Shown here: one piece after another, positions 1,640 through 17,664 of the stretch
Layout: every line of letters begins with the position of its first letter
Numbering within the stretch: the stretch's first letter is position 1
Assembly: GCA_964560525.1 (NCBI GenBank)
Contig: CAZLLO010000001.1
Span: forward strand, 6,656-70,655
Direction of reading: 5' to 3'
From: an uncultured Candidatus Saccharibacteria bacterium
GTDB lineage: Bacteria; Patescibacteriota; Dojkabacteria; SC72
Length of the DNA stretch: 64,000 bases
Made by a program: the position numbers and the translations under genes
The notes under the pieces: model-generated
What the model was told of the DNA's origin: nothing
Database searches by the model: none
The model's input: the letters and a program-made list of their open reading frames with translations, nothing else

Positions 1640-1746
1640 GAGTATCCTTGTTTAATTTAAATAGTAATGTTGACTACACTCTATAAAAACATCTTTATTC
1701 ATGTCATTTTACCTCCTTCTACTGTTTTTTACCACCCATATTATAT

Positions 1747-3300
1747 TTAGAACACTCTCCGGCTTCCTGGACCAAATACATTCTGCCTTGTCCAATAGTT
1801 AGGTTCGTAACTACTACTCCCATATCTAAAAAGATCCCCGACCTCTTTTGATAAGACTTGCACAGGCCTTCTATCCTCCTTTATGGCTACATGTAGTACG
1901 ATGGTAAATGCATCTACTAGGTCATCATGCTTCTCTACTCCAAAATATACTAACTGCTGTATTAATTTGTCTGCACCTTCTTTTGGAAACAATACTTTAC
2001 CCGATCTAATCATATACGTTACTGAGTCTAACCTAGCCCTCTTATCCTGTCCATTAACAGAAAAACCCTTTGCATCAAAACTACTTGTAACTAATTGCTG
2101 TATAACTGCTCTCTGATATCCAACATCTTCAATATATATCTTACATCTCCTATCAAACAACCCTGATTCTTTTGAAAGACTCTTTATTCGCTCTGTTGCA
2201 GAGGGAAAATCCAATCGTTCATTAACAGGAAACTTTTGAATATATACCTTCAGAGTCTTTTCATATCCAAATACATGCCCTACTACTAAAGCTGTATAGT
2301 CTGCATGATTACTTGAAGATATAGCTAGATCAACCCCTATTACAGAATATCTATACCCATCACTATCTACAGGCAATTCATCATAGTACTGTATCCACTC
2401 CTTGTGTACTATTTGGTCTTCATCAGCAATAATTTTAAGCATATACTCCCTTTGCCATGCTTTATCATCTCCATTCAGCTTTCTTTCAACACTTAAATCA
2501 TCAAGTGTTGGGTATCTACCTTTCCAAAGTATTTCATTCTTATCATTAATAACAGGATATTCCCTGTAAATTGTATTACTCGATTCCTTCTCAATATTCT
2601 TTCTAAGTCTCATTAGTAAAGAATCTTCATGCAAAAGATTTCCCACCATCACAATCTTAGTATTTTTCTCTCCAAGAGGAGCAATCTCCCCTGTGAACCA
2701 AGTATATGTCCTATCTCTTCCTTCTTTCGTCTTTGTAGAAGTTAAATCTTCAACATCATCACAGATAATTAAGTCTGGTCTGTATGCTCCATGCCTTAAA
2801 CCTCTAATACTCTGTTCACTTGAAGCTGCTATTATCTTTGCATTAAAGTTAGGAATTACTAAAGAGAAGGAGCCCCACTCATCTGATGTCTCCTGGAAGG
2901 GGCCTAAGTCTTTTCTAAGAAGCTCATTGTATTCCAACTCTCTCTTTATATTAGCTAGATGTATCTTAGCTTGTTGTTGTGTCTGAGAAAGAATCACTAC
3001 ACATTTCTTCTGTTGTTTTCCTATTATTGACCATATTGGATATGACATTGTCATAATGGTTGATTTAGCAGAACCCCTGAAAGCAACAATAACTGCCATC
3101 TTTAGATTCTCATCCTCTGTAATCCTAAACATTTCTCTTTGAAATGGTGCTGTTTTGTACCTGGTATATTGGCTAAAATATAGATGAAAGAATATATAAT
3201 GGCTTTCTTTAACAATCACTCTTCTTGCGACCTGATCTTCCAAAAGTTTGTTTATATCCTCGATTGTTATTTCAGTATTATTCTGTAATTGGTTGTCCAT
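1747..3300 (-). CDS. terL: Phage terminase large subunit (TerL, Terminase_6-like).
   Basis: 517 aa. P-loop FRGSAKST, Walker B LIICDDVED, C-terminal RNaseH-fold nuclease acidic residues (IGVDLA, IEDVGY, HDDLVDAF). Confidence 0.8.
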   Translation of the reverse strand: MDNQLQNNTEITIEDINKLLEDQVARRVIVKESHYIFFHLYFSQYTRYKTAPFQREMFRITEDENLKMAVIVAFRGSAKSTIMTMSYPIWSIIGKQQKKCVVILSQTQQQAKIHLANIKRELEYNELLRKDLGPFQETSDEWGSFSLVIPNFNAKIIAASSEQSIRGLRHGAYRPDLIICDDVEDLTSTKTKEGRDRTYTWFTGEIAPLGEKNTKIVMVGNLLHEDSLLMRLRKNIEKESSNTIYREYPVINDKNEILWKGRYPTLDDLSVERKLNGDDKAWQREYMLKIIADEDQIVHKEWIQYYDELPVDSDGYRYSVIGVDLAISSSNHADYTALVVGHVFGYEKTLKVYIQKFPVNERLDFPSATERIKSLSKESGLFDRRCKIYIEDVGYQRAVIQQLVTSSFDAKGFSVNGQDKRARLDSVTYMIRSGKVLFPKEGADKLIQQLVYFGVEKHDDLVDAFTIVLHVAIKEDRRPVQVLSKEVGDLFRYGSSSYEPNYWTRQNVFGPGSRRVF

Positions 3301-3685
3301 TTTCTTCCTCCTTTCTCTCTTCTGAGAATGCCATACTAAGAGATTTACGAATTAGTTCCTTTTGCTCATCCGTTAGAGGGAGATCCTTGTTAGTTGTAGT
3401 TACTTCAAGTTTAGGAGAGTAGTTCTTATGGTGATTCTTTAACCAGAATATTATTCCAGTTAAGTTTCCATCCCTTATGGCAGAGATCAATTGACTCTCT
3501 GCCATATCATTAATTAACTGAGCCCCTTCTTGTAGTGCAATCTCAGCATCTTCTGCAAACTTAGGATCTCTTTTCTTCCATCTATAGAATGTTGCTCTTG
3601 ATACTCCCATCTTTTCGCAAGTTACCTGTATGATTGGTGTTTTCTTAAGCTGTTCTACAATTGCTTTCTTATTTATTGTTTTCAT
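3278..3685 (-). CDS. Small HTH protein in the terminase-small-subunit position.
   Basis: 135 aa. HTH signature VSRATFYRWKK. Lies immediately upstream of terL and overlaps it by 23 nt. Confidence 0.5.
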   Translation of the reverse strand: MKTINKKAIVEQLKKTPIIQVTCEKMGVSRATFYRWKKRDPKFAEDAEIALQEGAQLINDMAESQLISAIRDGNLTGIIFWLKNHHKNYSPKLEVTTTNKDLPLTDEQKELIRKSLSMAFSEERKEEENGQPITE

Positions 3686-5010
3686 TGTATTTTCTTTGCA
3701 CTTAATTTAGTTAGGTTTTCCCATCTATTCCTAATTACCTCTGCATAAACAGGAGATTTTTCCATTAAATAGCATCTTCTTTTCATCTTCTCACAAGCAA
3801 TTAATGTAGATCCGCTTCCGCCAAACGGTTCTACTACTAAATCATTTCTTTTTGTAAGGACTTTGACATAAGGAATGAGTATTTCTAACGGTTTTGTCCC
3901 AAAGATTATCCCCTGTCCAGAGCTTTTCTCATCAGAAGCTTTGTATTCTATGAAGTCAGTTGGCTGTATTTTCTTCCCTTTCTCATATCCTTCCCAATGG
4001 GGCTTCCCAGATATGGCATACAAAGCTGTCTGGTACTCATTCTGAAGCAATTCTTCCTCGGGAGGAGTATTCATGACTTCCTCTTTGTATGAGGAACCAA
4101 CCATTGCTATATCGTGTTTAGAAAAGAATTTGTATTTAGCAGAAAATCCTTGGTGTCTATTTGGTATATGCCAAACAATCATGTTTTTTACCTTCCAATA
4201 CTTCTCCATTTCTCCCCATATAGTCCTAATATTTTTCCAATTTTCATATACAATGATGTGGAAATCCTCCTTTGCTACTTCTGAAATATTTTTCATCCAT
4301 AGTTCTGTGAAGTTATCTGGTAATACATCTGTCTCAAGGTACTTTCTGTCTCTTTTGTATCCGAATCCTTCCGTTGGTTTACCGCTCTTTTTCTTCCCAT
4401 GAAGATAGTCCAAAATATACGGAGGGTCCGTATAAACCATATCTGCTTTTTCACCATTCATTAACTTGAGCATGTCTTCTTGTACTGTAGAGTCTCCACA
4501 CATCATCCTATTTTCTCCTAATTGCCATATATCTCCTTTTTGAATTTCAATCTTCTTAATGTCTAGCTTGTTAAGCTCTTTTTTGAGATCAAATACTTCT
4601 GGGCTATTATCTTCCCAATCAAAGATTAGATCCAATTCCTCTGAGTTGAAACCTGTATCTGTTAAGAATTCCTCTGCAAAGCCAGCGAGAAGTTTAAAGT
4701 CGAATTCTCCTTGATTTTTGTTTAATCTAAGGTTTAATTCCTTCTCCTTCTCAATATCTGGAATATTTACATATACAACAGGCATTTCTTTTATACCTAA
4801 GGCTTTCGCTGCCTCTATACGCATATGTCCACCAATGACAATGTTCTGTCTACTAGGAGCATTGTTAACTATTGCTGGATCTACAATACCAAATCTTTGG
4901 ATACTGGTTTTGAGATCATTTAAAGCTTTTTCATCCCATTTCCTTGGGTTGTAGTCAGCTTTGACTAAGGCGTCTATTTGAACATAGACTGTTTGAAGTT
5001 TGTTCTTCAT
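3682..5010 (-). CDS. ParB-like nuclease domain fused to a beta-class DNA methyltransferase (N6-adenine or N4-cytosine).
   Basis: N-terminal ParBc-like block GGHMRIEAAKALG. Motif IV DPPY lies upstream of motif I EPFGGSGST, which is the beta-class order. ATGA start/stop overlap with the upstream gene. Confidence 0.75.
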   Translation of the reverse strand: MKNKLQTVYVQIDALVKADYNPRKWDEKALNDLKTSIQRFGIVDPAIVNNAPSRQNIVIGGHMRIEAAKALGIKEMPVVYVNIPDIEKEKELNLRLNKNQGEFDFKLLAGFAEEFLTDTGFNSEELDLIFDWEDNSPEVFDLKKELNKLDIKKIEIQKGDIWQLGENRMMCGDSTVQEDMLKLMNGEKADMVYTDPPYILDYLHGKKKSGKPTEGFGYKRDRKYLETDVLPDNFTELWMKNISEVAKEDFHIIVYENWKNIRTIWGEMEKYWKVKNMIVWHIPNRHQGFSAKYKFFSKHDIAMVGSSYKEEVMNTPPEEELLQNEYQTALYAISGKPHWEGYEKGKKIQPTDFIEYKASDEKSSGQGIIFGTKPLEILIPYVKVLTKRNDLVVEPFGGSGSTLIACEKMKRRCYLMEKSPVYAEVIRNRWENLTKLSAKKIQ

Positions 5011-5105
5011 AACTTAAATAGTAAAAATTTAGATATATATGCTTAAATAATGGTTATTCAAGCTATATCTAAATGATAAAACAATGATAGTTGTGTAAAG
5101 TTGGG

Positions 5106-5846
5106 TTACTTTCTTAAGAAGGATATATATGCAGGATTAACAGTGAACATTGTGTTGTTAGATATAAAGAAATCCTTGTATCCAATACCTTCTTCAATAG
5201 TATGGTTTAAGGCCCTATATTTCTCATACACTATGTGATACCAATCCTTACTTGCATCCGAGTAGTCTTCACCAATAGCTTTTACTAAATCTTCTAACTC
5301 CCAAGGCATCTTTTTACGACGCTTACCGCCGAACATAAACTTACACAAATCATACCTAGGAGTTCCCTTTTTTAATGCTAACGGGAAGCCATTTATCACT
5401 AAACGTGGTTTTTCTTCTTCAAAAACAACATTATTTGTTTCTAGGAACATGAATTGAGGTTTATTCTTTATTACTACTTTAATTGCTTCTGCAACTTCTT
5501 TTGTCACTTTAAATGATATTGTCTTAAATTTTGTAGCACCTTCCTGTATTGTATAAATCGTGTATATATCTTCTTCTGTAAGTGTACCCTCTTTTAAACC
5601 TTTCCTTATTTCTTTAGGAGAGATAGAAATCCTTAGGTTTAAGAAAAATTCATAGGTATCTGAGCTTAGGTAGATGGTTTTTTCAAAGAATTTTGCTATA
5701 CCCGAGGTAACTTCCAACATCTTATTGATAACCTTCTGTATAGGTTTCATCGTTTTATTAATAATCTCTATCTGTTGTTGGAAACTTCCAGAAGCTATCT
5801 CTATACTTTTCACTATATCTGCGATATCACCCATTTGTAGCAACAC
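5106..5846 (-). CDS. Hypothetical protein.
   Basis: 246-aa ORF in the same orientation and block as the phage-like genes. No motif recognised. Confidence 0.4.
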   Translation of the reverse strand: MLLQMGDIADIVKSIEIASGSFQQQIEIINKTMKPIQKVINKMLEVTSGIAKFFEKTIYLSSDTYEFFLNLRISISPKEIRKGLKEGTLTEEDIYTIYTIQEGATKFKTISFKVTKEVAEAIKVVIKNKPQFMFLETNNVVFEEEKPRLVINGFPLALKKGTPRYDLCKFMFGGKRRKKMPWELEDLVKAIGEDYSDASKDWYHIVYEKYRALNHTIEEGIGYKDFFISNNTMFTVNPAYISFLRK

Positions 5847-5962
5847 CCCCTAAGTTAAACTATCATGTATTATAATATCTTTTACGTATTTATGGTGGGA
5901 AAAAAGAGATAATATACCAGAAGACCATTCTAATATGAAAACAGCGAACATATTAGCAACTC

Positions 5963-7558
5963 CTAGTCTACACCATTTTTCTTATCAAGGACTTTTTTTA
6001 TCTTTTCAATATCTCTGGCCACGATTGGTTCAAATACGTCTAAAATTGCCAATAAACTACTAACATTATTAATATTGCTAACCCGTGCCATCTCTAAATT
6101 CGAAAGTGCTTCTTTATTTTCGGGGTAGTGCTTATTTATAGCGTTGATCCTCAATTTCCTACTAAAGGTATAATTCCCTGGATGATTGGCATCCACTACA
6201 CCATATAAAAAATGAATTATCTTACTAGAGAGATACTGACATCTCTCAGTCAAGTCTTCTGGTCCTTTTTCCACAGTATCATCTTCACACCACTTTCTAA
6301 TCTCTTGCATCTCGGAAACTAAATCTTTATTTAGTAAATAAGTTAATTCTGATCCAGACTGAGGAAATTCCTCGTGTGGAAGCATCTTCCCATACAAAAG
6401 TATTCCATCAAAGGTACATATAAATCTATCCTTCTTATACTCTTCTCCTAAAAAGTCCGATATATTTATAACTTTCACATCATTTTTGATCTCCCGAAGG
6501 AGTTTAGCACTCTCTTTATCAATTTCTTTTGCCCCTTTTTCAAGTATTATATAGATATTAGTGTCTGAAACACCTTCCTCATGCTCCCCTCTAGCAAGAC
6601 TCCCAAGAAGATAGATAGATCGCAAATCATTGCCATAACGGCACTTACAAAGCTCTATCATGTCATTAATCCAATTCTTATGTGTAGCATCAATAGCATC
6701 AAAGTTTGTAAGATTAACTATTTTTAAAGTATTGGAAAATTGCAAATATTCGTTTATAACCTTCTTATCACCCTCCCCAACTAATGGATACCCTAGTTCG
6801 TTAATAAATAAAAGGGCTATGTCGTCAATATTTTTATATATTTCATCAAAGGTCTTTTCCAGTTGCTTTTGTGACACCGTTGAAAAATCTTCCAATGTCT
6901 TATCTCTCTTTTCTTGTAAAAGTTTTTCTCCTTCAGTTGTTAAAACTCCAGACATGCTTAATACAATCCGAAGTCCTTTAATTTCATTAAAATCTTGATT
7001 CTGATGAAGAGTACTCAAAAAATGATGATACCCCGTACGTTTTCTGAGACAAACTTGAATTCCAGACTGTCCAGAATGGTCATCTGCATCCCATTTTGAC
7101 ATTAGATCTTCCAGCTTCTTAGACTTAATAGCACTCAAATATTTCTTTAATTTTTGATCACTTGATCGAACCTTTTTCTTCAGATCCTCAATAGTAAATT
7201 CTTCTGAACTATCAATATCATTCTCCAAAAGATAGCTCATCTTAATCAATTTATCTTTGAGTTGATGTACTAAATCTAAAAAGTACCCTTGATAAAATAT
7301 TATTATATCCTCTTTACTCAAACCCTCAGCTTTTAAAAAAGACTCATCGTACTCATACTTCATAAGAGACCTTACTCTTTTAAGGTCTACCAGGACTCTT
7401 TTCACCTCATTCGCGTAGTCGAATCTTGATTGCAAGTAGCCTGTTGTAGCAGAGTCACAGTTTATAGCCAAACAATGAGGCTCACTAAGCTTCTGCTTAA
7501 AAACATCAATTAGAAGCCTGGTACACAAGTTATTTAGATTTGATTTTTCTATATCCAT
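5963..7558 (-). CDS. Large protein with a Pol-beta-superfamily nucleotidyltransferase (MNT-like) core.
   Basis: 531 aa. GS-x11-D motif LLGSLARGEHEEGVSDTN near residue 318. The second carboxylate is replaced by N, so the domain may be inactive. Rx5-6H patches (RKRTGYHH, RINAINKH) could be HEPN-like. The N-terminal 300 aa are unassigned. Confidence 0.45.
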   Translation of the reverse strand: MDIEKSNLNNLCTRLLIDVFKQKLSEPHCLAINCDSATTGYLQSRFDYANEVKRVLVDLKRVRSLMKYEYDESFLKAEGLSKEDIIIFYQGYFLDLVHQLKDKLIKMSYLLENDIDSSEEFTIEDLKKKVRSSDQKLKKYLSAIKSKKLEDLMSKWDADDHSGQSGIQVCLRKRTGYHHFLSTLHQNQDFNEIKGLRIVLSMSGVLTTEGEKLLQEKRDKTLEDFSTVSQKQLEKTFDEIYKNIDDIALLFINELGYPLVGEGDKKVINEYLQFSNTLKIVNLTNFDAIDATHKNWINDMIELCKCRYGNDLRSIYLLGSLARGEHEEGVSDTNIYIILEKGAKEIDKESAKLLREIKNDVKVINISDFLGEEYKKDRFICTFDGILLYGKMLPHEEFPQSGSELTYLLNKDLVSEMQEIRKWCEDDTVEKGPEDLTERCQYLSSKIIHFLYGVVDANHPGNYTFSRKLRINAINKHYPENKEALSNLEMARVSNINNVSSLLAILDVFEPIVARDIEKIKKVLDKKNGVD

Positions 7559-7604
7559 ATGTATTGATTATACTCTTTTTTAGGGTGTCTCTTTTGTCTC
7601 ATTT

Positions 7605-8012
7605 TTGATATCATCTAGTCGGGGAAATGGGGTCCAGACCCATATGTCCCGTATTATTTCTCTGCTCCATATTCTAAGGCTAAATACCTGGTCAACAGAA
7701 ATCTCAAAAGAAATTCATGTTTTACAGGATGATATCGTGATAACAAAGAACAGAGTAAGTGCTTTTTGTAATACCAATTTAGATTCCATATTAAAATTAA
7801 AAGAAAATGATATTGAAGATATTATGATTGCGGGTATTGCAACCGAGTTAGCAGTTTCAAGTACAGTTCGAGATGCGCATGATTTGGATTATGATGTTAC
7901 TGTAATTGAAGACTGTTGTGCTTCTGCAGATATTTCTAATCATAATGCTACGATGAAGATATTACAGAAGATAGCAAAGATAGAGAATTCTGCTACGGTA
8001 TTTGAAAAATAA
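7605..8012 (+). pseudogene. 5'-truncated isochorismatase/cysteine-hydrolase family gene (C-terminal ~105 aa only).
   Basis: DDIVITKNRVSAF...IMIAGIATELAVSSTVRDAHDLDYDVTVIEDCCAS matches the C-terminal half of the isochorismatase-like fold. The apparent N-terminus of the ORF is translated from repeat R1 (7633-7674), so the true 5' part is missing. Confidence 0.6.
7633..7674 (+). repeat. Repeat family copy R1 (TCCAGACCCATATGTCCCGTATTATTTCTCT...CCATATT).
   Basis: Direct repeat shared with 8036, 9535 and 10323. Contains 3 CCRTAT sub-motifs about 10-22 bp apart. Confidence 0.7.
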
Positions 8013-8035
8013 AGACATATAGATTCCAGACCCAT

Positions 8036-8072
8036 ATGTTCCATATTGCTCCTCATATTAGTTTCGCTACCC
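8036..8072 (+). repeat. Repeat family copy R2.
   Basis: TCCAGACCCATATGTTCCATATTGCTCCTCATATT. Lies immediately after the isochorismatase fragment stop. Confidence 0.7.
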
Positions 8073-8138
8073 TAATTCCTTTTATATACTACCCCATTAG
8101 AGAATGATTGCATTGTATGAAATTAATTACAAAAGATA

Positions 8139-8186
8139 TTCGGATACCATACCATATCCTTCATTTTCAGCTTATCCGTATAAATG
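8139..8186 (+). repeat. Variant repeat copy R3a (TTCGGATACCATACCATATCCTTC...CCGTATAAAT).
   Basis: Shares the CCATAT / CCGTAT phased sub-motifs with R1, R2, R4 and R5, and about 27/30 identity with 8966-9000. Confidence 0.55.
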
Positions 8187-8250
8187 ACAATATTGTAAAT
8201 AAGCAATAGCTATGGAATAATGGAGCTATTAATATAATTGTTATTCATTT

Positions 8251-8805
8251 ATGGATATAAGAAATTCTACATGTAAATGTTGGGTATGTGGCACAGAATA
8301 TAACATACAAGAAGTTCTTTCAACATTTAGTGGTTTAGATTCGGATTTCAAACCAAAGGAAAATATATGTCCTAATTGTGGAGCACCATATCGCCATAGC
8401 GCAACACCAAGTATAGGGATTGTAAGAGATTTGTATACCGCAATCTATTGGGTCCCAAGTAATGGAGAAGTCCCCAAATTGGAACACTTCGTAAATTCAG
8501 AAGAAGGAATTGAAGACTTAAAGAAACTGTTGTTAGCATACAAAGATGTATTAGCAGCTGTAGAAATTTTTGTAGATATGAACAAAACAGATATACAAAA
8601 TTCTTCCAATCCAGCACTTCCAAGTGGACCATACCTTCCTTCCCCCATAGAAGAAGAGGCCAGGTTAAAGACTGAGAAAGCTATGATTACAGAAATGACA
8701 AAAGATGAAGTAGCATTTAAAGAAAAGATTGAGAACTTAGTTTCTAAAACAAAGGAAAAACTTCTTACAGAAAAAGGTAAATATTATAAAGCTGATCTTC
8801 AATAA
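8251..8805 (+). CDS. Zinc-ribbon (CxxC...CxxC) hypothetical protein.
   Basis: 184 aa. CWVCG...CPNCG. Flanked by R3a and R3b. Confidence 0.5.
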   Translation: MDIRNSTCKCWVCGTEYNIQEVLSTFSGLDSDFKPKENICPNCGAPYRHSATPSIGIVRDLYTAIYWVPSNGEVPKLEHFVNSEEGIEDLKKLLLAYKDVLAAVEIFVDMNKTDIQNSSNPALPSGPYLPSPIEEEARLKTEKAMITEMTKDEVAFKEKIENLVSKTKEKLLTEKGKYYKADLQ

Positions 8806-8965
8806 GTTATTCAAAAGTTTAGCTTTTGAGTGTACACATATTTAAGGACATATGTTAATTGGTATGCAGGTTGAAATTGAGATGATGATTGGAGGTTGTA
8901 CTGAAAATGAAACATTTAAGAGTCCATATAGTTATGAAAGATAGGTAGAATACTTGAATATTGAT

Positions 8966-9000
8966 TTCGGATACCATGCCATATCCTCCGTATTTATTCC
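8966..9000 (+). repeat. Variant repeat copy R3b (TTCGGATACCATGCCATATCCTCCGTATTTATTCC).
   Basis: Same family. Ends in CCGTATTTATT, like R1 and R4. Confidence 0.55.
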
Positions 9001-9497
9001 CTAACTAAGATATTTTCCCTTTAGTTTTTCTATTCTTGCTTTGTGTTTTTCAACAAACCAATCATCAAGATATGGCAAATATTTTAACTGTATTTCTAAT
9101 GGTAGTTTAAAAAAATTTCCTTGATATACTTTTCGACAGTTTGAACTTCCACAGTTACATTGAAAAACGCCATCGTTATCTCCATTAACAGAATAATCAT
9201 ATGTTATTTCATCTCCCTCTTTTAAGCATAAACATTCCTAACTCCATTTTTTGTTTTAACATAGACATTTGGATCACAAGAATGATTTATATATACTTCA
9301 GGTTCTTGCATTAAAACGATTTTGTCAGAGAAATAATCACAATGAAATTCATGCTGCTCTTTTGTAAGTTTTGACTCATCTGTAACAACATTAGAATCAT
9401 CTATTTTTAATACAAAATCGCCCTCTCTGAAATCTCTACAGGCAAAAACTCCCTTTCCTTGCTTAGCAGATTTTTTTACTTCTACATCGTTAATCAT
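9001..9497 (-). pseudogene. SET-domain (lysine methyltransferase-like) gene split by a single-nucleotide frameshift in an A4/T4 run at 9220-9224.
   Basis: The 9222-9497 ORF gives GKGVFA...INHSCDPN (SET N and NHSC motifs). The downstream frame 9001-9221 gives EGDEITYDYSVNGD...CNCGSSNCRK (SET GEELTxDY motif plus a post-SET Cys cluster). Adding one A restores VYALKEGDEITYDY. Confidence 0.65.
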
Positions 9498-9534
9498 AGA
9501 ATCAATTATACACTTTCTTTATATCCTTTTCTGT

Positions 9535-9580
9535 TCCAGACCCATATGTTCCGTATTATTTCTCTTTTCCCCCGTATTGT
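9535..9580 (+). repeat. Repeat family copy R4.
   Basis: TCCAGACCCATATGTTCCGTATTATTTCTCTTTTCCCCCGTATTGT. Confidence 0.7.
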
Positions 9581-9645
9581 GTAAGTTCTAATAAATTAGT
9601 TCATATTTATTTTCAAACTGTATATCATGCTATATAATGTAAGCC

Positions 9646-10290
9646 ATGGTTATAAAAGCAAAAGCAGTAATATTTGATAGAGATGGTGTAATTATTGATT
9701 CCGATACACTAGTAGGACAATCAATAATTTACGGACTTAGAGAAATTGGTATCGATGTTCCAGAGGATGATATTCCACCTATGGCAGGAAAAAGCGTAGA
9801 TACACTTAGAGATTCTTTATTATCTAAATGGAACTTCAATTTTGATGAATTTCGTGCCATTCAAAGAAAATATTTTTATGACAATTTAGATAACGCTCCC
9901 TATTACACGGATATGGTTGGGTTTATAAAAGATTTACATGCCCAGAATAAAATTCTTGCGCTAACAACATCCGCTGGTAGAGAAGGAACTACCCTAATTT
10001 TAAAGAAAATTGGGATAAATGATATGTTCAATGTTATCATCGCAAAAGAAGATTGTGCTAAGCTGAAACCTGATCCTGAACCATATCTGAAAACAGCTGA
10101 AATGCTTGGTGTCTCACCAGAGGATTGCATAGTAATCGAAGACTCAGCAATAGGTGTTGAAGCAGCAAAAAAAGCTAATATGAAATGTATTGCAATACCA
10201 AATAAACATACGAATAAGCAAGACTTTTCCATAGCAGATTTAGTAGCCAGCTCGGTGGAAGATATAAAAAACAATATTTTAATCTCTTAG
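9646..10290 (+). CDS. HAD-superfamily hydrolase (beta-phosphoglucomutase-like phosphatase).
   Basis: AVIFDRDGVIIDSD is HAD motif I (DxDGV). 214 aa. Confidence 0.7.
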   Translation: MVIKAKAVIFDRDGVIIDSDTLVGQSIIYGLREIGIDVPEDDIPPMAGKSVDTLRDSLLSKWNFNFDEFRAIQRKYFYDNLDNAPYYTDMVGFIKDLHAQNKILALTTSAGREGTTLILKKIGINDMFNVIIAKEDCAKLKPDPEPYLKTAEMLGVSPEDCIVIEDSAIGVEAAKKANMKCIAIPNKHTNKQDFSIADLVASSVEDIKNNILIS

Positions 10291-10322
10291 GTATTTAGGA
10301 ATATTGGGAGCCCATTATGTGT

Positions 10323-10357
10323 TCCAGACCTGTATGTCCCGTATTCATTATCTCCTC
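10323..10357 (+). repeat. Repeat family copy R5.
   Basis: TCCAGACCTGTATGTCCCGTATTCATTATCTCCTC. Sits between the convergent HAD and ABC-permease genes. Confidence 0.65.
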
Positions 10358-11088
10358 TATTGTTTGCTATCACTCTTCATCTTTCTTTTGAATATAGCCA
10401 TTGTTAATGCGTAAACTCCACAGATATATACAAAAATAATTAGAATTGATAAGAAGAGATTTTCTACATTAGAAGCCAATACACCTCTAGTAAGATCAGC
10501 TGCCCATATAAATGGGAGCCCCTTACAAATATATCCAAATACTTTCCCTGCAAGATCTATAGAGAACCACATACCTGAAGTAAATGCTACTAATTGGATC
10601 ACGATACTACCTAGAGGGCCAGAGGATTTATCAGTAGATATACATCCTACAAGAACTCCCAAACCAATAAATAAGATAGAAATAGGAATTAAAACCAATA
10701 TTGCCCATAAAATGTTAATAGAAAAATGCAAACCTAAGAGAATACCCGTAGCAAAGAAAAATACACTCTGAGTAATAGTTAAAGGAAGTAATGCAAGAGA
10801 ATAACCCAAGATATAATCAATTGGCTTCATAGGACTAGAAAATAACCTTGAAAGAAGTGATGTACTCCTATCTCTAGCAACTAGGTTTGCTGTAAACAAA
10901 GATATGAAAGAGAAACTAAACAAAATAATACTAGGTGTGAAATTTCCAATTGAATACTGTTCAACTGGGATATTAAATTGCTGAAATATAATTAGGAAAA
11001 ACAAAGGTAAGAGAATACAAAATACAAGACTCATAGGATCTCTAAGTAATTCTTTTATATTTCTTTCTGCGAAAGCTATCATTCTCAT
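10357..11088 (-). CDS. ABC-2 type transporter permease.
   Basis: 243 aa, about 6 TM segments. Abuts the ATPase gene (2-nt gap). Confidence 0.6.
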   Translation of the reverse strand: MRMIAFAERNIKELLRDPMSLVFCILLPLFFLIIFQQFNIPVEQYSIGNFTPSIILFSFSFISLFTANLVARDRSTSLLSRLFSSPMKPIDYILGYSLALLPLTITQSVFFFATGILLGLHFSINILWAILVLIPISILFIGLGVLVGCISTDKSSGPLGSIVIQLVAFTSGMWFSIDLAGKVFGYICKGLPFIWAADLTRGVLASNVENLFLSILIIFVYICGVYALTMAIFKRKMKSDSKQ

Positions 11089-11089
11089 A

Positions 11090-11812
11090 TTATTTATTCC
11101 TTGTTGCTATATTAACAAATGCATCTTCAAAATTTTTAGCATTAGATAATTTAATTAACTCCTTACTTGTTCCAACTTCTAAAAGATGCCCTTCTACCAT
11201 TATTCCAACTCTATCTGCCAACATTTCAGCTTCTTCCATGTAATGAGTTGTTAAAACAATTGTTTTTTTACCCTTTAAACTTTCTATCACTTTCCAAAGC
11301 TCTCTCCTAGCCAAAACATCTAAACCTAAAGTCGGTTCATCTAAAAATATAATCTTGGGATCATTCACAAGAGCCATAGCTATAGAAAGCCTTCTCTGCC
11401 AACCACCCGAAAGTGTCTTAGCACTTTGTTTTCGCACCTCTTCCAAGCCAAATTCTCCTATCAACCCTTCTACGATATTCTTTGTATTTCCTATTTCATA
11501 AATACCTGATATGAAATATAGATTCTCTTCAACTGAAAGATTGGGTGCAATTGCAGTTTCTTGTGGGCTTACATTTACAATATTTTTTACACTATTAGAA
11601 TCTTTAACAATACTGCTACCACACAATAAAGCATCCCCACTACTAGGTGTTAACAAACACGTTAGTATCTTAATTAAAGTAGTTTTACCAGCACCATTTA
11701 CACCAAGCAATGCAAATAGCTCACCCTCGTGGATATCTAAATTAACATCATTGACAGCAACTTTCTGTCCGAAATTTTTTACAATATGTTTTATTTCGAT
11801 AGAATTTGTCAT
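11090..11812 (-). CDS. ABC transporter ATP-binding protein.
   Basis: Walker A GVNGAGKTT, signature LSGGWQRR, Walker B IIFLDEPT. Confidence 0.85.
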   Translation of the reverse strand: MTNSIEIKHIVKNFGQKVAVNDVNLDIHEGELFALLGVNGAGKTTLIKILTCLLTPSSGDALLCGSSIVKDSNSVKNIVNVSPQETAIAPNLSVEENLYFISGIYEIGNTKNIVEGLIGEFGLEEVRKQSAKTLSGGWQRRLSIAMALVNDPKIIFLDEPTLGLDVLARRELWKVIESLKGKKTIVLTTHYMEEAEMLADRVGIMVEGHLLEVGTSKELIKLSNAKNFEDAFVNIATRNK

Positions 11813-12030
11813 TATCTTTTTGTCTTACTTTTAATAGTATTTCCTGTTAAGTCTTCAAAATGCTCAGATTTAACAATTGCTATCCCCTTTTTCTTGTCTG
11901 CCAACATCACAATAGAATCGCCAGGATTAATTTCAAACATATCACGAATATCCTTAGGGATTACTATTTGTCCTCTTTCGCCTACTTTGCAAACTCCAAT
12001 ATATTTATCTTTTGGCATATTTATATTCAA
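11812..12030 (-). CDS. AbrB/MazE (SpoVT-AbrB) family DNA-binding protein.
   Basis: GERGQIVIPKDIR swapped-hairpin motif. 72 aa. Its stop overlaps the start of the ABC ATPase gene. Confidence 0.6.
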   Translation of the reverse strand: MNINMPKDKYIGVCKVGERGQIVIPKDIRDMFEINPGDSIVMLADKKKGIAIVKSEHFEDLTGNTIKSKTKR

Positions 12031-12094
12031 GGTAAAATTTCATATTTATCATACTATTCATATTTGAGTCGTGCAAGACAGATTTAATAATTAT

Positions 12095-12115
12095 TCTCAA
12101 TATCGTTTATTGAGA
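12095..12115. promoter_or_regulatory. Perfect 8-bp inverted repeat TCTCAATA-N5-TATTGAGA upstream of the AbrB-ABC operon.
   Basis: Seen directly in the sequence. Lies between the radical SAM gene stop and the abrB-like gene start. A candidate operator or terminator. Confidence 0.3.
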
Positions 12116-12125
12116 TACTATACAA

Positions 12126-13001
12126 TTAGAAATTCCCCATTCTTAATTGCTCACTCTCTCTATTCTTTATTTTGTAATTGTTCTGTATATTATATTTTCT
12201 TTTATACTTGCTTACCCTAATATAAAAGACCTCCCTGTACTCCCTACTAACAAATCCTCCCTTGTACAACTCCAAATATTTTTTAAAATATTCTGGAAAC
12301 TCCCTCTCAATAAAGCCAAGAAAATGACTCTTAGTAACACCCCTTAGATTTAGTATCTGACACAAAACATAATCTATTGGCACAGATGATATATGACTAA
12401 ATAAATCATCAAGATTTTCATCGGTATCAGTTAAGAGAGGTAAAAAAGGCATCGCTAAAACACCTAAGTTAACATTTGTTTTTCTAAACTCTTTTAATAC
12501 CTCCAATCTCTCAGTAGGCTTAGAAGCTCCAGGCTCTGTTTTAGGATATATATTTGAATCAAAGGTTGTAAGAGATACTGCCAAACTTACAGATGCTACA
12601 TTAGAAAGTTCATTCCACAGCTCAATATCTCTTAAAATTAATTTTGATTTCGTAGAGATTGTCACTGGATTCTTGTATTTGATTAATATTTTAAGAATTT
12701 CTGGCATTATTTCTTCCTCTTTTTCGAGTCTCTGATAACTGTCTGTTACACCCCCTAAATTAATAATTTCCCCTTTCCATCTTTTTGAAGATATCTTCTT
12801 TTCGAGTAATTCAGGTATATTATCTTTAACATATATCTCACCAAAGAAATCTCCATCCTCAAGATATCTGTGTGAATATTGTGCATAGCAGTATTGGCAG
12901 TGATGACTACAGCCTCTAAAGATATTTAAATCCCAATTATATGGAAGATATTTCGAGTTGAGTTTATTTAATGCAGATTTGGAATCTATTCTTTTTACCA
13001 T
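12126..13001 (-). CDS. Radical SAM protein, spore-photoproduct-lyase-like DNA repair family.
   Basis: CSHHCQYC is a Cx3Cx2C cluster. A TISTKS motif resembles the SPL ELRTKS motif. 291 aa. Confidence 0.55.
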   Translation of the reverse strand: MVKRIDSKSALNKLNSKYLPYNWDLNIFRGCSHHCQYCYAQYSHRYLEDGDFFGEIYVKDNIPELLEKKISSKRWKGEIINLGGVTDSYQRLEKEEEIMPEILKILIKYKNPVTISTKSKLILRDIELWNELSNVASVSLAVSLTTFDSNIYPKTEPGASKPTERLEVLKEFRKTNVNLGVLAMPFLPLLTDTDENLDDLFSHISSVPIDYVLCQILNLRGVTKSHFLGFIEREFPEYFKKYLELYKGGFVSREYREVFYIRVSKYKRKYNIQNNYKIKNRESEQLRMGNF

Positions 13002-13238
13002 ATTTAATTATATCATCAGTATATTGTTTGAAATGTGAGGGGAACAGATATTTGGTATAATTAAATATGAAAAACAATAAAGAATATTTCTTCATCGACC
13101 TTAATGTCATTGATATGAAAATAGTTAATTGGGGAATATCTAATACAGCAACTCTTACAGGAGAAACAGGAGACAAGGACATTCATAGGATATTTCTAAC
13201 TAAGGGGCAATACAACAAGTTTCTAGCTTACTTAAAGT

Positions 13239-13263
13239 AATCAGAATAGCTTTTATTCTGATT
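13239..13263. promoter_or_regulatory. Perfect 10-bp palindrome AATCAGAATA-N5-TATTCTGATT about 55 bp upstream of the 13318 gene.
   Basis: Seen directly in the sequence. A candidate dimeric transcription-factor operator. Confidence 0.35.
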
Positions 13264-13317: not shown

Positions 13318-15165
13318 ATGAAGAAATTAATTCTCCCTCAAATAAAGCTAACTAAGAAGCAAATCCTTTTCATTTGTATTCCCCTTGCCGTTATAATCCT
13401 CCTAGTTATTGGCTTTTTCATACTAAAAGGCATGGGAAAGCTCAACTTTGGAAATAATGTAGAAAATAACCAAACAAAAGAAGGATATGCCAACGACATG
13501 GTAGAAGATCCTGAAGATATATATCAACCGTTTGAGGAATCAAATACAAAAATTAAAATATATGGAGAAATTGGATGGGATAATGAAGGAGGAACAGTAC
13601 CTACATACGTAAATATGAGTAAACAATGCTCAACACAAATTGCATGGGATGAAGTAAACGCATATATAAATGAACATTGGGGCGAAAAAAAGAAAAATGA
13701 ACTAGAATCAGAATATCTAGCATCTAAAGGGCTTTCATATACAAGCTATGATGAATACAGCACAACTTTTACGAATCCTCCACACACCCGTCTTACTGGA
13801 GAAGCAACCGAGGTTGAAAATCACTGTATCATTAGCACATCTTCAGGTTTTGATATATCAAGGACATGGAACGAAGAAGAACACAACTTTACTCAAAATC
13901 CTATGTTAAGTGCATATGTAGAATTACCTGATGGTTCTTTACTCACAATGAATGACTCTTCTACATTTCAGATAAATGTATATGATAATGAAATAAGAGT
14001 TGTACTAGAAGAAGGTTTAGGATATTTTAGAATAGCTGAACAAAAAGATGGAAAGACTTTTGCAGTTCAAGTCGGAGATAAGGTATACAAGACACAAGGA
14101 GGAACAGAGCTTTATGTTTACTCTGTATCATATATTAACCGATCACAAGCATTCAAAACAGAATTCGCTATCTTTGCAGATACAGAGGGATATGATGGAT
14201 TTCAGACATACTTCAACCAAGAGGCAACAGAACGGAGCCAAGCATATCTAGCAGGAATAAAGACAATAGCTGGAGATGGAGAAATATACCAGAGAGGTAC
14301 TAACAATAAGATCGAGAAATCAGAGAATGAATACAGATTCGCCTACTACTACAAATATACATATACAACAGATAGTATAAAGGGCGGGTACACACGCAAT
14401 GCCAACGAAGTACCAACTCTCTCATCATTTGGTACATATGTTAGCAATGATCTTGATACAGGTCTTAATTTGAATATTAATAACTCAAGCAGAGAATACT
14501 ATGACTTCTTTGTACGAGATCAAAAAGCATTGAATAAGATTGGACAAGGCTTTGAGAATATCGTAAAGAACAACAATGGAAATATATCCAAGATGATGAA
14601 AGAGTATGTAGTATATTACACAAATCTTGGAACTAAACAGTTAGCAGAGAGAGCAGCTACCGAGGAAAAAGATACTCGTCCATGTAGCGGTGTATGGTTT
14701 CTGGAAGATTCTCCTACCTGTGGCTGTAAAACAGGCTGGACATACATCAAAGAAGCCAAAGGTTGCTGCCCTAGTGGCTCAACATATTCAACAAGTCAAA
14801 ATAAATGTATAACTACAACAATAATATCTAGATGTCCATCGGGGACATATAGTGTTGGCAATAATAAATGTTGTAAAACAGGGTCTAAATTATCTAGTGA
14901 TGGTACTAAATGTGTATCCAGTACGAATAAATCAGACAAAACACCAACGTATTATCCAGATAGTGGGACAACAAGTTCTGGAACATCTGGTAGTACAGGT
15001 TCCTCTTCCAGTTCAACAGGTGGTAGTTGCCAAGCACAAGATATGGAAGCCTGTTTCGAGATGGGCATTATGAAAGATCAATGCCCGGGTGGTGCAGCAG
15101 GTCCTGGATTCTATGTAAAAAATGGACAATGTTGCCAAACAGTAAAAATGGAATGCGTTGACTAA
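13318..15165 (+). CDS. Secreted or membrane-anchored protein with a Ser/Gly/Thr-rich linker and a Cys-rich C-terminal repeat region.
   Basis: N-terminal TM segment. Repeated CCPSGSTYS...NKC / RCPSGTYS..NKCC motifs. SGTSGSTGSSSSS linker. Confidence 0.5.
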   Translation: MKKLILPQIKLTKKQILFICIPLAVIILLVIGFFILKGMGKLNFGNNVENNQTKEGYANDMVEDPEDIYQPFEESNTKIKIYGEIGWDNEGGTVPTYVNMSKQCSTQIAWDEVNAYINEHWGEKKKNELESEYLASKGLSYTSYDEYSTTFTNPPHTRLTGEATEVENHCIISTSSGFDISRTWNEEEHNFTQNPMLSAYVELPDGSLLTMNDSSTFQINVYDNEIRVVLEEGLGYFRIAEQKDGKTFAVQVGDKVYKTQGGTELYVYSVSYINRSQAFKTEFAIFADTEGYDGFQTYFNQEATERSQAYLAGIKTIAGDGEIYQRGTNNKIEKSENEYRFAYYYKYTYTTDSIKGGYTRNANEVPTLSSFGTYVSNDLDTGLNLNINNSSREYYDFFVRDQKALNKIGQGFENIVKNNNGNISKMMKEYVVYYTNLGTKQLAERAATEEKDTRPCSGVWFLEDSPTCGCKTGWTYIKEAKGCCPSGSTYSTSQNKCITTTIISRCPSGTYSVGNNKCCKTGSKLSSDGTKCVSSTNKSDKTPTYYPDSGTTSSGTSGSTGSSSSSTGGSCQAQDMEACFEMGIMKDQCPGGAAGPGFYVKNGQCCQTVKMECVD

Positions 15166-15765: not shown

Positions 15766-17664
15766 ATGAATATCAAAAATACAAAACACATAATCCTGTG
15801 TGCCATACTCTTTGTAATAATCCTACTCGGCCCTATTCTCGTGTTCTTTCTAATCACACAAAAAGAACTAACTACAAATACAAAAAGTATAAAACCAATC
15901 GATAAGTTTTGCATTCAAGGAACATTCCTCTTTCCAACCCTTTATGAAGTAAAAGCTTCATTTCCTACAGAAGTAGAAATAAGAGATAAAACAACTATTT
16001 TCAATAAGATAGATATTTTCGCCAAAGAAATATGCTTAAAACCCAATACCACACTCTCAGCCAATACTCCATATATTCTTACCCTCTCATACCTTGGAGT
16101 CTTTCAAAAGGAAATAAAAATACTAACGACGGACTATCCACAGATAAAAGAACCTAACCCAAAAACAACAATAGATCCTAATCAAATAATTACATACGAA
16201 TTAGATTATACCTCCGAATCTCTAAACTACACCCTTGTTCTAGACGATACCAAGACCCTCTGTACTAAAGAAAATAATCTCGTACATTGTAATATTGCTT
16301 CCCTTAATCTAAGACCAGATAGTGCACACAAGTTAAACCTGGTATCCTCGAATAAGACAGAGACTGTAAATACGCTAATTTCGACCAATATTACAGTACT
16401 CTCTCCTGTTAACATAGTTTCTACAAGCATACAACAAAATGAGATCATACAGAGTCTTTCAATCCCAGAAATAAAGATAACTTTAAATAAAGAGATAGAT
16501 AAAAATTTCAACACTATACTTGAGGATAACTTGAAGAATAAGGTCACATGCAAAGCTTCTGTTACAGGATCTAAGATTTTCATACAACCTCAAAGCACAT
16601 TTAAACAAAATACAGCATATACTCTAAAGCTTAATCAACTTATTGGTTTAGATGGAAGCCAATTAGAGAAAGAATATACTTTAGAGTTTTCCATAGGTAA
16701 TGGTCCGAAAATTACAAAAACGAATACAAGTAGTGCATTTCCAACAACAGGAAACATAGTAATCACATTTAATCAAAACCTTAAAAACTCACAAGATATT
16801 AAGAAATTCATAACGTTGAATTCCGGAACCGATTACTCATATACCATTAGCAAGAATAAGATAACTATAAACCCAAGCCATAGCTTAACTCTATGCAAGA
16901 AATATAGTTTGAACATAGCAAAGGGACTCAAAGGAAGTACCAACCTGATATCCACCTCTAATTCTTCATATACTTTTAAAACAACGTGTAAAAGAACTGT
17001 TCCAATTGGAACATCCGTACAAGGAAGAAGCATCTACGCGTATTACTTTGGTACTGGTAGTAAAAAGATTGTATTCTTTGGCTCAATACATGGATCTGAA
17101 GCAAATACTAAAACAACTCTTAATAGATGGGTAACAGAGTTAGAGAATAATAACAGTAGAATTCCATCAGACAAAACCATCATCGTTATACCGACAGTTA
17201 ATCCTGATGGAATAGCAAACAAGAGTAGATTTAATGCTAATGGTGTGGACTTGAATAGAAATTTTGATACTACCAATTGGGTAACAGGCACATACCTTCA
17301 AACTCATTTCTATCCTACTGGTGGAGGATCTAATCCATTCTCTGAGCCAGAGAGTCAGGATATTAGAAACCTCATAAACAGAGAAAATCCATATATTACA
17401 CTTACATACCATTCTGCAGCAGGATATGTGATACCTACAAATACAGGCACAGGTGTAGCATTGGGAAAAATATATTCTCAGTTATCTGGATACAGATATG
17501 TTGCCCCTGGCACGACTGGTTCTTTTACATATGATATTACTGGTACTTTCGAAGAATGGGCTGAAGAGCATGGGCACAATGCCTTGGTAATAGAGCTTTC
17601 CAGTGCATACTATGATCAATTTATACAAAATAGCAAAGCTATGTGGAGAATGGTTGAAAACTAA
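15766..17664 (+). CDS. Membrane-anchored protein with Ig-like repeats and a C-terminal M14 zinc-carboxypeptidase domain.
   Basis: HGSEA (HxxE), NPDG, DLNRNF and a downstream His are the M14 signature. N-terminal TM. Confidence 0.65.
   Translation: MNIKNTKHIILCAILFVIILLGPILVFFLITQKELTTNTKSIKPIDKFCIQGTFLFPTLYEVKASFPTEVEIRDKTTIFNKIDIFAKEICLKPNTTLSANTPYILTLSYLGVFQKEIKILTTDYPQIKEPNPKTTIDPNQIITYELDYTSESLNYTLVLDDTKTLCTKENNLVHCNIASLNLRPDSAHKLNLVSSNKTETVNTLISTNITVLSPVNIVSTSIQQNEIIQSLSIPEIKITLNKEIDKNFNTILEDNLKNKVTCKASVTGSKIFIQPQSTFKQNTAYTLKLNQLIGLDGSQLEKEYTLEFSIGNGPKITKTNTSSAFPTTGNIVITFNQNLKNSQDIKKFITLNSGTDYSYTISKNKITINPSHSLTLCKKYSLNIAKGLKGSTNLISTSNSSYTFKTTCKRTVPIGTSVQGRSIYAYYFGTGSKKIVFFGSIHGSEANTKTTLNRWVTELENNNSRIPSDKTIIVIPTVNPDGIANKSRFNANGVDLNRNFDTTNWVTGTYLQTHFYPTGGGSNPFSEPESQDIRNLINRENPYITLTYHSAAGYVIPTNTGTGVALGKIYSQLSGYRYVAPGTTGSFTYDITGTFEEWAEEHGHNALVIELSSAYYDQFIQNSKAMWRMVEN

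Follow-up and report, generated by a model that had tools for sequence, protein, structure and literature searches.

Direct repeats that mimic the 3' end of tRNA-Asp as probable recombination junctions of integrative islands in a Patescibacteria genome

What are the six short direct repeats that lie among small genes between positions 7559 and 10357 of a 64,000-nucleotide stretch of DNA from an uncultured bacterium (contig CAZLLO010000001.1)? The whole stretch, called the window below, has a G+C content of about 33% and belongs by its protein matches to Candidatus Dojkabacteria/Patescibacteria. An earlier reading of the sequence alone, the original prediction, considered recombination sites of a cassette-capture system, operators of one regulator and a lineage-specific intergenic repeat. 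The first of these was right in kind, as the copies most probably are recombination sites; they belong to a hotspot at a transfer RNA gene, tRNA-Asp, and not to an integron-like system. What had been missed is that the repeats imitate the 3' end of tRNA-Asp, as attachment-site (att) halves of tRNA-targeting islands. With a probability of roughly 80%, we regard them as site-specific recombination junctions at a tRNA-Asp(GTC) hotspot, left by integrative islands. As established by alignment, the repeats mimic the tRNA-Asp 3' end and mark junctions of exchanged flanks, within a population and between species. The same comparisons show R1, the first copy, to be the closing junction of an island; islands related to it encode a large serine recombinase and adjoin tRNA-Asp. 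Related contigs and loci are cited by their L numbers.

The repeats mimic the 3' end of tRNA-Asp

All six copies are on the plus strand and form two sub-families. Four A-type copies (R1, R2, R5 and R6) have the sequence TCCAGACCCATATGTCCCG/TATT, where the slash marks the junction, and their pattern starts at 7633, 8025, 9535 and 10323. Two B-type copies (R3 and R4), TTCGGATACCATRCCATATCCTCCG/TATT, start at 8139 and 8966. The two types can be aligned in a single register, with ..CC(G or A)/TATT as their common end. The A core pattern TCCAGACCCATATGTCCCGTATT, with at most three mismatches allowed, gives four matches with 0-2 mismatches, and the B pattern TTCGGATACCATRCCATATCCT two (8139 and 8966), versus none expected by chance for either pattern, as judged by shuffled sequences; both are absent from the rest of the 64 kb, scanned on both strands. 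The six copies in one orientation are thereby confirmed, as is their presence in every intergenic gap, which holds for 7559-10357; the second copy, placed originally at 8036, has its start at 8025.

Taken with their flanking letters, the A-type copies are R1 at 7629-7655 (GGGGTCCAGACCCATATGTCCCG/TATT, junction between 7651 and 7652), R2 at 8022-8047 (GATTCCAGACCCATATGTTCCA/TATT, junction between 8043 and 8044), R5 at 9532-9557 (TGTTCCAGACCCATATGTTCCG/TATT, junction between 9553 and 9554) and R6, the last copy, at 10320-10345 (TGTTCCAGACCTGTATGTCCCG/TATT, junction between 10341 and 10342). The B-type copies are R3 at 8139-8167 (TTCGGATACCATACCATATCCTTCATTTT), whose junction is degenerate, and R4 at 8966-8994 (TTCGGATACCATGCCATATCCTCCG/TATT), with a sharp synteny breakpoint between 8990 and 8991.

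The position of the repeat relative to tRNA-Asp is seen in two related contigs, L035 and L036. In L012/L036, a gene for a 230-aa protein lies between an A-type and a B-type copy, and the same protein is encoded in L035. The two contigs are identical downstream of CCG/TATTTATGAAAC and different upstream of it. Upstream, L035 has a complete tRNA-Asp(GTC) recognized by ARAGORN and ending in ..GGGTTCGAGCCCCTTCCATTCCG/TATTTATGAAAC, whereas L036 has defence-like genes, a conserved island-end sequence termed the L-box, and then GGGGTCCAGACCCGTATGTCCCG/TATTTATGAAAC. Because all downstream DNA is shared, the A-type repeat stands at the exact site of the tRNA 3' end. Several short contigs of other samples start inside this junction, as expected for a branch of the assembly graph. 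The site is thus polymorphic, occupied by the tRNA end in L035 and by an island end in L036, and R1 and R4 have alternative flanks as well.

The A-type repeat is identical to the 3' end of the L035 tRNA-Asp at 15 of 23 positions. When the repeat cores were compared with tRNA-Asp 3' ends, the best z per copy over shuffles was 2.5-3.9; several single comparisons, mostly those with the L041 fragment, are at chance level. Some copies end with an encoded CCA (L006 ..GTCCCACCA, L064 ..GTCCCGCCA), and a T-arm-like stem is retained only in the long form of R1. L041 presents the order tRNA 3' end (..CCCTCTCCG/TATTAC), a gene for a 231-aa homologue of the 230-aa protein, a B-type copy and a DUF2177 gene; in L006/L014, the DUF2177 gene follows directly after L-box and A-type copy. 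Across species, the A-type core is better conserved than those species' own tRNA-Asp ends, which argues that it travels with elements and is not a decayed local copy of the tRNA. As far as these alignments go, the repeats are mimics, unlike the displaced pieces of tRNA found at classical islands.

The hexamers CCATAT/CCGTAT, described originally as phased within the copies, are real: the pattern of paired CCRTAT hexamers, CCRTATNNNCCRTAT, has five matches versus none expected, four of them inside repeats. They coincide, however, with the tRNA-mimic and with the CCG/TATT junction itself, which speaks against the iteron or operator interpretation given to them. That the copies serve as operators or iterons for one DNA-binding regulator, or are an intergenic repeat peculiar to the lineage and uninvolved in recombination, is scarcely credible. 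The direct CCRTAT hexamers about 10 nt apart would suit it, as would L001 and L002, where members of one gene family have a copy, in either orientation, 12-13 nt ahead of their -35 box. Yet R4 and R6 each lie between convergent gene ends, which also led us to reject a promoter or promoter-proximal operator, synteny breaks exactly at copies, and a copy replaces a tRNA 3' end; only six copies are present in 64 kb, all in a 2.7-kb stretch, and related genomes have single copies. A generic dispersed repeat was rejected as well, since the strict degenerate 23-mer was found once each in only 2 of 185,579 species genomes (GTDB set), both of them metagenome-assembled genomes labelled Saccharibacteria.

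Scans for promoters and terminators gave counts at shuffle level. Rfam detected nothing beyond chance in 7400-10500 and only a tRNA-Lys in the whole window, and ARAGORN found no tRNA at R1. GC skew does not indicate a terminus in the window, and a terminus/dif site was discarded.

A 21-mer with 17 fixed bases and 2 purine positions, searched in metagenomes, returned 19 loci, whose flanks are common with the window only in L006, L009, L012 and L014; the high-GC loci resemble chance matches. In viral-sequence scans the A-type motif occurred in one contig only and the B-type motif in none. Homologues of the window gene at 13318 (L028-L033) are without copies of the motif. In the marine/TARA contigs L003, L010, L017 and L018, GTTCCAGACCCGTATGTTCCATAT is found inside a longer conserved, coding-looking stretch, and the motif there is probably unrelated to the att family.

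Exchange of flanks at the junctions and the units between them

The gene content around the copies varies among strains, as expected originally for recombination sites, not only between L035 and L036 and in L009 but also in nine contigs from other samples (L063-L071). These were retrieved for other neighbourhoods of the exact zinc-ribbon protein encoded between R3 and R4, which is widespread in metagenomes (82 indexed blocks of the collection, at least three neighbourhoods). All nine match the window at 7631-8990 only, over 1360 nt and with 99.6-99.8% identity. The right stop of homology is 8990, the G of ..CCTCCG in R4, and beyond it three alternatives exist, window included. The window continues with TATTTATTCCC and the SET pseudogene. 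Seven of the nine contigs continue with CCATATTCCTTTGGTTGCTACAAGACCCGTCCAC..., of the island left-end type CCATATTCCTTTGGTTGCTACAAGACCCGTCC, a sequence found also after tRNA-Asp in L001 and after a partial tRNA copy in L046; in the four of them that are long enough, a gene for a 535-aa protein is next, and L064 then has another A-type copy. This 535-aa gene was considered as kin of the window's 531-aa gene and proved unrelated. The remaining two contigs have CCATTCTTTCAAAGTTGCGATAAGAG, the type that follows tRNA-Asp in L060, and then a 277-aa gene.

On the left side of R1, L009 and those contigs that reach that far have a gene for a 126-aa membrane protein and the other A-type allele, GACGTGTATG instead of GACCCATATG, with the same DNA rightward. 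In L002, an R1-type element is joined directly to the promoter of a homologue of gene 13318, so that the counterpart of window 7660-13260 is absent. Comparison of these junction variants puts the exchange point within or beside CCG/TATT.

The conserved stretch at 7631-8990 (+) is a module with no integrase gene, which comprises the R1 core, an isochorismatase fragment, R2, R3, the zinc-ribbon gene and the R4 core. In L063/L065, where the arrangement is present in two independent assemblies, this 1.36-kb module is 99.8% identical to the window, while the neighbouring core genes (dUTPase, M14 peptidase and a 57-aa open reading frame) are only 67-77% identical, which indicates recent transfer of the module between species.

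The original prediction held that the copies bracket single genes, which is correct for four of the five intervals and fails for R2-R3, about 120 nt with no gene. Its gene assignments agree with the Pfam matches and open reading frames. The first unit is a 5'-truncated isochorismatase gene at 7674-8012 (+; PF00857, profile positions 69-166 of 175); its homology begins about 20 nt past R1, the first ~68 profile positions are gone, and the truncation is identical in all variant contigs. The third unit is the zinc-ribbon gene, called as an open reading frame at 8251-8805 (+; 184 aa). The fourth, at 9001-9497 on the opposite strand, is a frameshifted SET-domain gene (PF00856 on a 91-aa N-terminal open reading frame), whose C-terminal part with a CxC...C post-SET motif lies in another frame and ends with a stop at 9001-9003. 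An intact gene for a HAD-family hydrolase at 9646-10290 (+; 214 aa; PF13419, PF00702) forms the fifth. The units from R1 to R6 thus contain small cargo genes or pseudogenes only; they are flanked by att copies and are free of recombinase and transfer genes.

Could these units be the single mobile cassettes of an active, integron-like platform, each supplied with one tRNA-mimic site and moved in trans by the island serine recombinase? We consider this quite unlikely, even if several observations would agree with it. Most units are single genes of 0.4-0.8 kb, and the HAD and zinc-ribbon genes have likely promoters of their own; two lineages have the 230/231-aa gene and its B-type site next to tRNA-Asp and continue with different genes downstream; the 1.36-kb module keeps 99.8% identity in backgrounds otherwise 23-33% divergent; and L033 has an independent single-gene array bounded by tRNA 3'-end repeats. 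On the other hand, the five units include two pseudogenes and an empty one, an appearance of decay, the isochorismatase-to-zinc-ribbon module has in every case moved whole, R2 and R3 included, and never by single units, the two-gene unit of L006, with left and right ends of an island, points to a decayed island, and no circular cassette form was seen. A broader idea, that Patescibacteria have a serine-recombinase equivalent of the integron in which the recombinase of defence-bearing islands acts in trans to capture and shuffle small modules that have no integrase and one tRNA-Asp-mimic site each, and to pass them between species, appears rather unlikely; if true, the tRNA-Asp locus would be a dedicated gene-capture platform in minimal genomes. 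The system would gain in interest if the small units turned out to be actively captured cassettes.

A true integron was rejected because neither the window nor the related islands have a tyrosine recombinase (IntI) and the copies do not form attC hairpins. In agreement with the original view that the repeats are not attC-like, single-strand folding of the six copies on both strands gave z of -1.3 to +1.2 and no shared hairpin.

The island left of R1 and its recombinase

The original prediction placed R1 at the end of a phage-like block, and an L-box and the attR junction of an island are indeed found there. The L-box (GTCTCTTTTGTCTCATTTTTGATATCATCTAG; 7587-7618, +) is conserved at island ends and lies immediately within attR; it is single-copy in the window and precedes A-type copies in L002, L012/L036, L006, L014 (twice) and L026. 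A break between the Logan contigs L022 and L023/L024 falls at 7584-7613, where they overlap by 30 nt.

The right arm of the island, delimited by open reading frames and Pfam matches, occupies 1-7586 on the minus strand. It contains the C-terminus of an SNF2/PLD protein (1 to ~1640), a TerL terminase about 27% identical to phage terminases (1747-3300), a helix-turn-helix (HTH)/TerS-like protein (3278-3685), a protein with ParB-N and DNA methylase domains (3682-5010), a 246-aa protein of unknown nature (5106-5846) and a 531-aa NTP_transf_2 protein (5963-7558), all on the minus strand. Absence of an integrase from the window, as stated originally, is borne out by its open reading frames and Pfam matches, among which no recombinase gene was found. 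The divergent gene beside R1, considered as a recombinase in analogy to intI, encodes the NTP_transf_2 protein, and the neighbour at this position differs in every relative.

A recombinase within some 20 kb to the left had been envisaged originally, and a large serine recombinase gene starts about 5 kb to the left. Contig L034 is identical to the window over the shared part (same strain) and adds 5 kb leftward with SNF2/PLD and type IIG genes; over 8.5 kb, L034 is 83% identical to L060. Its terminus, ATGAAAGATACCAATGAATTAAAATATGT, corresponds to the first 29 nt of the recombinase gene. This gene is on the minus strand, and its start is thereby placed about 4,990 nt to the left of window base 1. 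Complete genes of the recombinase are present in L046, L049, L060 and L062. In relatives of the ParB-methylase/TerL block, the large serine recombinase has Resolvase, Recombinase and Zn_ribbon_recom domains, and its family counts at least 8,000 proteins at E ≤ 1e-40, the best 120 of them with 62-96% identity.

Three relatives show how such islands are bounded. L060, a 724-kb Dojkabacteria contig with 78.7% identity to window 1-5031, carries ParB-methylase, HTH, TerL, SNF2/PLD, type IIG restriction-modification enzyme and serine recombinase, the gene order of the window plus L034. After the recombinase come four more genes, a conserved non-coding stretch and tRNA-Asp(GTC) at 15959-16035, and beyond the tRNA are GGDEF, thioredoxin, TsaE and TsaD genes, the same flank as that of tRNA-Asp in L035. 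In L049, the recombinase gene is 140 nt from tRNA-Asp(GTC) (7304-7381). The IMG/VR contig L026/L043/L046 has L-box, A-type copy and the same module order as the window, with a cargo of type I restriction-modification genes, OLD nuclease, a large helicase (1518 aa) and the large serine recombinase; it ends with a 25-nt partial copy of tRNA-Asp, followed by left-end sequence.

In the mechanism we propose, each copy, a ~23-nt imitation of the tRNA-Asp(GTC) 3' end (T-arm and acceptor strand), would act as the element-borne half-site at the far (attR) end of an island that inserts at the tRNA-Asp 3' end, with strand exchange at CCG/TATT. The island-encoded large serine recombinase is the most probable enzyme, its action on these sites being proposed from genomic context; it would bind the tRNA 3' end as chromosomal half-site together with the island-borne mimic, whose ~23 nt fit the length of a half-site. 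Every insertion would leave the mimic and TATT at the far end, and the empty site would read tRNA-Asp/TATTATTTCTC. R1 would represent the attR of the most recent island, with window 1-7586 as right arm, and the corresponding attL and tRNA-Asp would lie left of the window, as suggested by synteny with L060. R2-R6 would be older junctions between remnants of earlier insertions or small att-flanked modules with no integrase, and the array R1-R6 would have arisen through later deletions or insertions of small att-bearing modules. One orientation of all copies is expected for successive insertions at one oriented target. The two-gene unit of L006 retains an island left end together with L-box and an A-type right end and so shows how such units arise by decay; the small units of the window may be either decayed islands or still mobilisable.

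Several points weigh against this reading. The tRNA-Asp and attL of the window's own island were not seen, as the left edge of the window stops short of them and their place is taken from L060. Identity between the repeats and genuine tRNA-Asp 3' ends reaches only about 65%. As a rule, the sites of large serine recombinases measure about 40-50 bp and are imperfect inverted repeats, with a central dinucleotide, the place of crossover, as the axis of their dyad symmetry. Here, the attP reconstructed from L026 and L046 (GGGTT..23 nt..TA..23 nt..GACCC) has weak dyad symmetry only; in L026, a symmetry CCGTA-T-TACGG can be seen. The island left ends hold a second pseudo-tRNA end, and it is direct, not inverted. 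A large serine recombinase of the canonical kind does not use attL as an integration site, and tandem build-up therefore needs relaxed specificity (compare staphylococcal Ccr), secondary sites or deletions. Finally, the sharp truncation of the isochorismatase gene at R1 lacks a detailed explanation.

Might the sites instead be those of a tyrosine recombinase system, either Xer with dif/pdif-like sites or an integrase of phage type, and have nothing to do with the island serine recombinase? The common 7-nt core CCGTATT at every junction does resemble the overlap region of a tyrosine recombinase, and tyrosine integrases serve most tRNA-targeting islands (PMC4383910). This is nevertheless very unlikely, given that no tyrosine recombinase is encoded in the window or in any island relative examined, that the sites share one orientation and do not have the inverted arms of dif-like sites, for which Xer/dif (pdif) modules were rejected, and that the window has no terminus by GC skew. 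The serine recombinase is the sole conserved recombinase of the island family and is found beside tRNA-Asp in L049.

Both island ends have further conserved sequences. At the right ends of islands, the L-box (GTCTCTTTTGTCTCAT) is a conserved sequence; in the more distant relatives L047 and L050, it provides a hairpin (AAGACAC..GTGTCTTATTTGTCTCATTT) with its 3' arm and its tail and is followed by GACC..GGGGTCAG, and it might be an insulating terminator or the site of an accessory factor. At island left ends, right after tRNA-Asp, there is a conserved non-coding block of about 150 nt (L001 ~2170-1990, minus strand; L046 17650-17480; L060 15950-15780; L006 125-205). The block contains the second pseudo-tRNA end (GGTTGC.ACAAGACCCGTCCAC), then ..TTGTTCCATTTTCGAAATAATAGCC..GGTTCGAAGGTAGAATCC, and might serve the islands as a regulatory region or encode a small RNA. 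Island left-end sequence also stands at the very start of L028.

A complete prophage was rejected as the nature of the island: structural genes were not seen in the window, L034 and L060, and the phage-like genes are TerL, the TerS-like HTH gene and the ParB-methylase gene only. Recognizable capsid or portal genes are likewise missing from window 1-7586, L034, L060 and L046, one of which IMG/VR lists as a virus. Perhaps these islands are defective elements, or akin to satellites, and make use of packaging functions.

Comparable systems and other observations at the locus

Tandem islands at the ssrA gene of Dehalococcoides are, on the ground of analogy, the nearest described case. They follow the single-copy gene for a small RNA, transfer-messenger RNA (tmRNA), and a short direct repeat of the gene's 3' end delimits each of them. 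Their integration module by attL consists of a CcrB-like serine recombinase and a ParB-domain protein; units devoid of this module have been read as cis-mobilisable elements (McMurdie et al. 2011, PMC3146451). An extra conserved motif beside the repeat, not matching the target gene, is shared with our islands (PMC3146451). In contrast, the target there is tmRNA and its copy a near-exact one of 20 bp, whereas here tRNA-Asp is accompanied by mimics of ~65% identity. Our islands have a single recombinase with no small DsiA partner seen, TerL, ParB-methylase and defence genes, and several of the units are single genes or pseudogenes.

Composite staphylococcal cassette chromosome (SCC/SCCmec) elements at orfX (rlmH) are inserted by the large serine recombinases CcrAB/CcrC at the 3' end of a conserved gene. 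Successive SCC insertions are separated by direct-repeat integration sites, and pseudo-SCC units devoid of a recombinase persist. By analogy, our array would share with them a serine recombinase acting at a gene 3' end, repeat-separated units and units with no recombinase gene; it differs in that the SCC target is protein-coding and its repeats, of 15-18 bp, are near-identical. In Streptococcus thermophilus, cis-mobilisable elements (CIMEs) of ICESt1/ICESt3 are att-flanked modules with no recombination or transfer genes beside an integrase-bearing element, formed by site-specific accretion. Our units correspond to CIMEs in these respects and in the common target, but they are much smaller. An indirect hint of CIME-like mobilization comes from the 99.8% identity of the 7631-8990 module in backgrounds of 67-77%. 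With integron arrays the locus shares short repeats in the same orientation between mostly single genes and small accessory enzymes as cargo; it is distinguished from them by the lack of IntI and of an attC hairpin, by one inverted gene, by sites that mimic a tRNA and by genes that probably have their own promoters.

Integration at tRNA 3' ends is also known for tRNA/tmRNA islands (PMC4383910) and for Prochlorococcus tycheposons (bioRxiv 10.1101/2020.12.28.424599). Partial tRNA copies mark their ends, arrivals push older elements outward, and the remnants build variable islands in streamlined genomes; 910 of 937 tycheposons have tyrosine integrases (bioRxiv 10.1101/2020.12.28.424599). Integration at the tRNA 3' end, marks made of partial tRNA ends, outward accretion and degenerate remnants would be in common with our locus. 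Those islands mostly have tyrosine integrases and true partial tRNA copies; ours have a large serine recombinase, and their mimics are borne by the element and conserved between species. The principle of tRNA-end repeats, tandem accretion and remnants is thus well established, and the locus is a hotspot of known kind in a little-studied lineage. No description of this island family in Patescibacteria was found by full-text literature searches, the coverage of which is incomplete.

How the very small genomes of Patescibacteria (Candidate Phyla Radiation) acquire genes or defence systems is little understood. The locus offers one concrete route, in which a widespread family of tRNA-Asp islands brings restriction-modification and other defence genes and leaves behind an array of att scars with small accessory genes. 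At least one module lacking an integrase is near-identical in genomes otherwise 23-33% divergent, a sign of recent exchange between species. The half-sites, together with abundant natural variants, could help in the mining of large serine recombinases for genome engineering.

An independent, analogous array at another tRNA is found at 1-3500 of L033 (Logan SRR8925806), from another Dojkabacteria-like species. A tRNA 3' end (GGTTCAAATCCTGTTTTCCCGACCA) is followed there by three more copies, ..AAATCCCGACCATTTATGAAT, at 430, 1121 and 3454, two of which have a conserved terminator hairpin, and the units consist of one or two genes. L030 and L031 represent one Dojkabacteria population and cover the locus that holds the 13318 homologue. 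A short-chain dehydrogenase gene of 182 aa found whole in L031 is broken into fragments in L030; gene calls differ at 2.8-4.7 kb and a tRNA-Ser(TGA) lies at L030 3954-4042, so this locus may be another variable tRNA-linked spot.

Large secreted proteins with a Cys-rich C-terminus, for which Pfam gave no match, recur beside att copies (window 13318-15165, L001, L002, and L064 3208-4815); the 535-aa protein of L064 may belong to the same family. The 13318 homologue of L001 is inverted and lies between tRNA-Asp and an A-type copy, and the TTGACA-N17 promoter of the 13318-type gene is kept in L002 and in the window. To the right of the array, a small MazE/AbrB-type protein with no obvious toxin partner (11812-12030, minus strand; PF04014, Logan gene table) heads an ABC-2 transporter operon (10357-11812). 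The window further contains a type III-like res/mod pair at 29576-33923, and the defence load around the locus is heavy.

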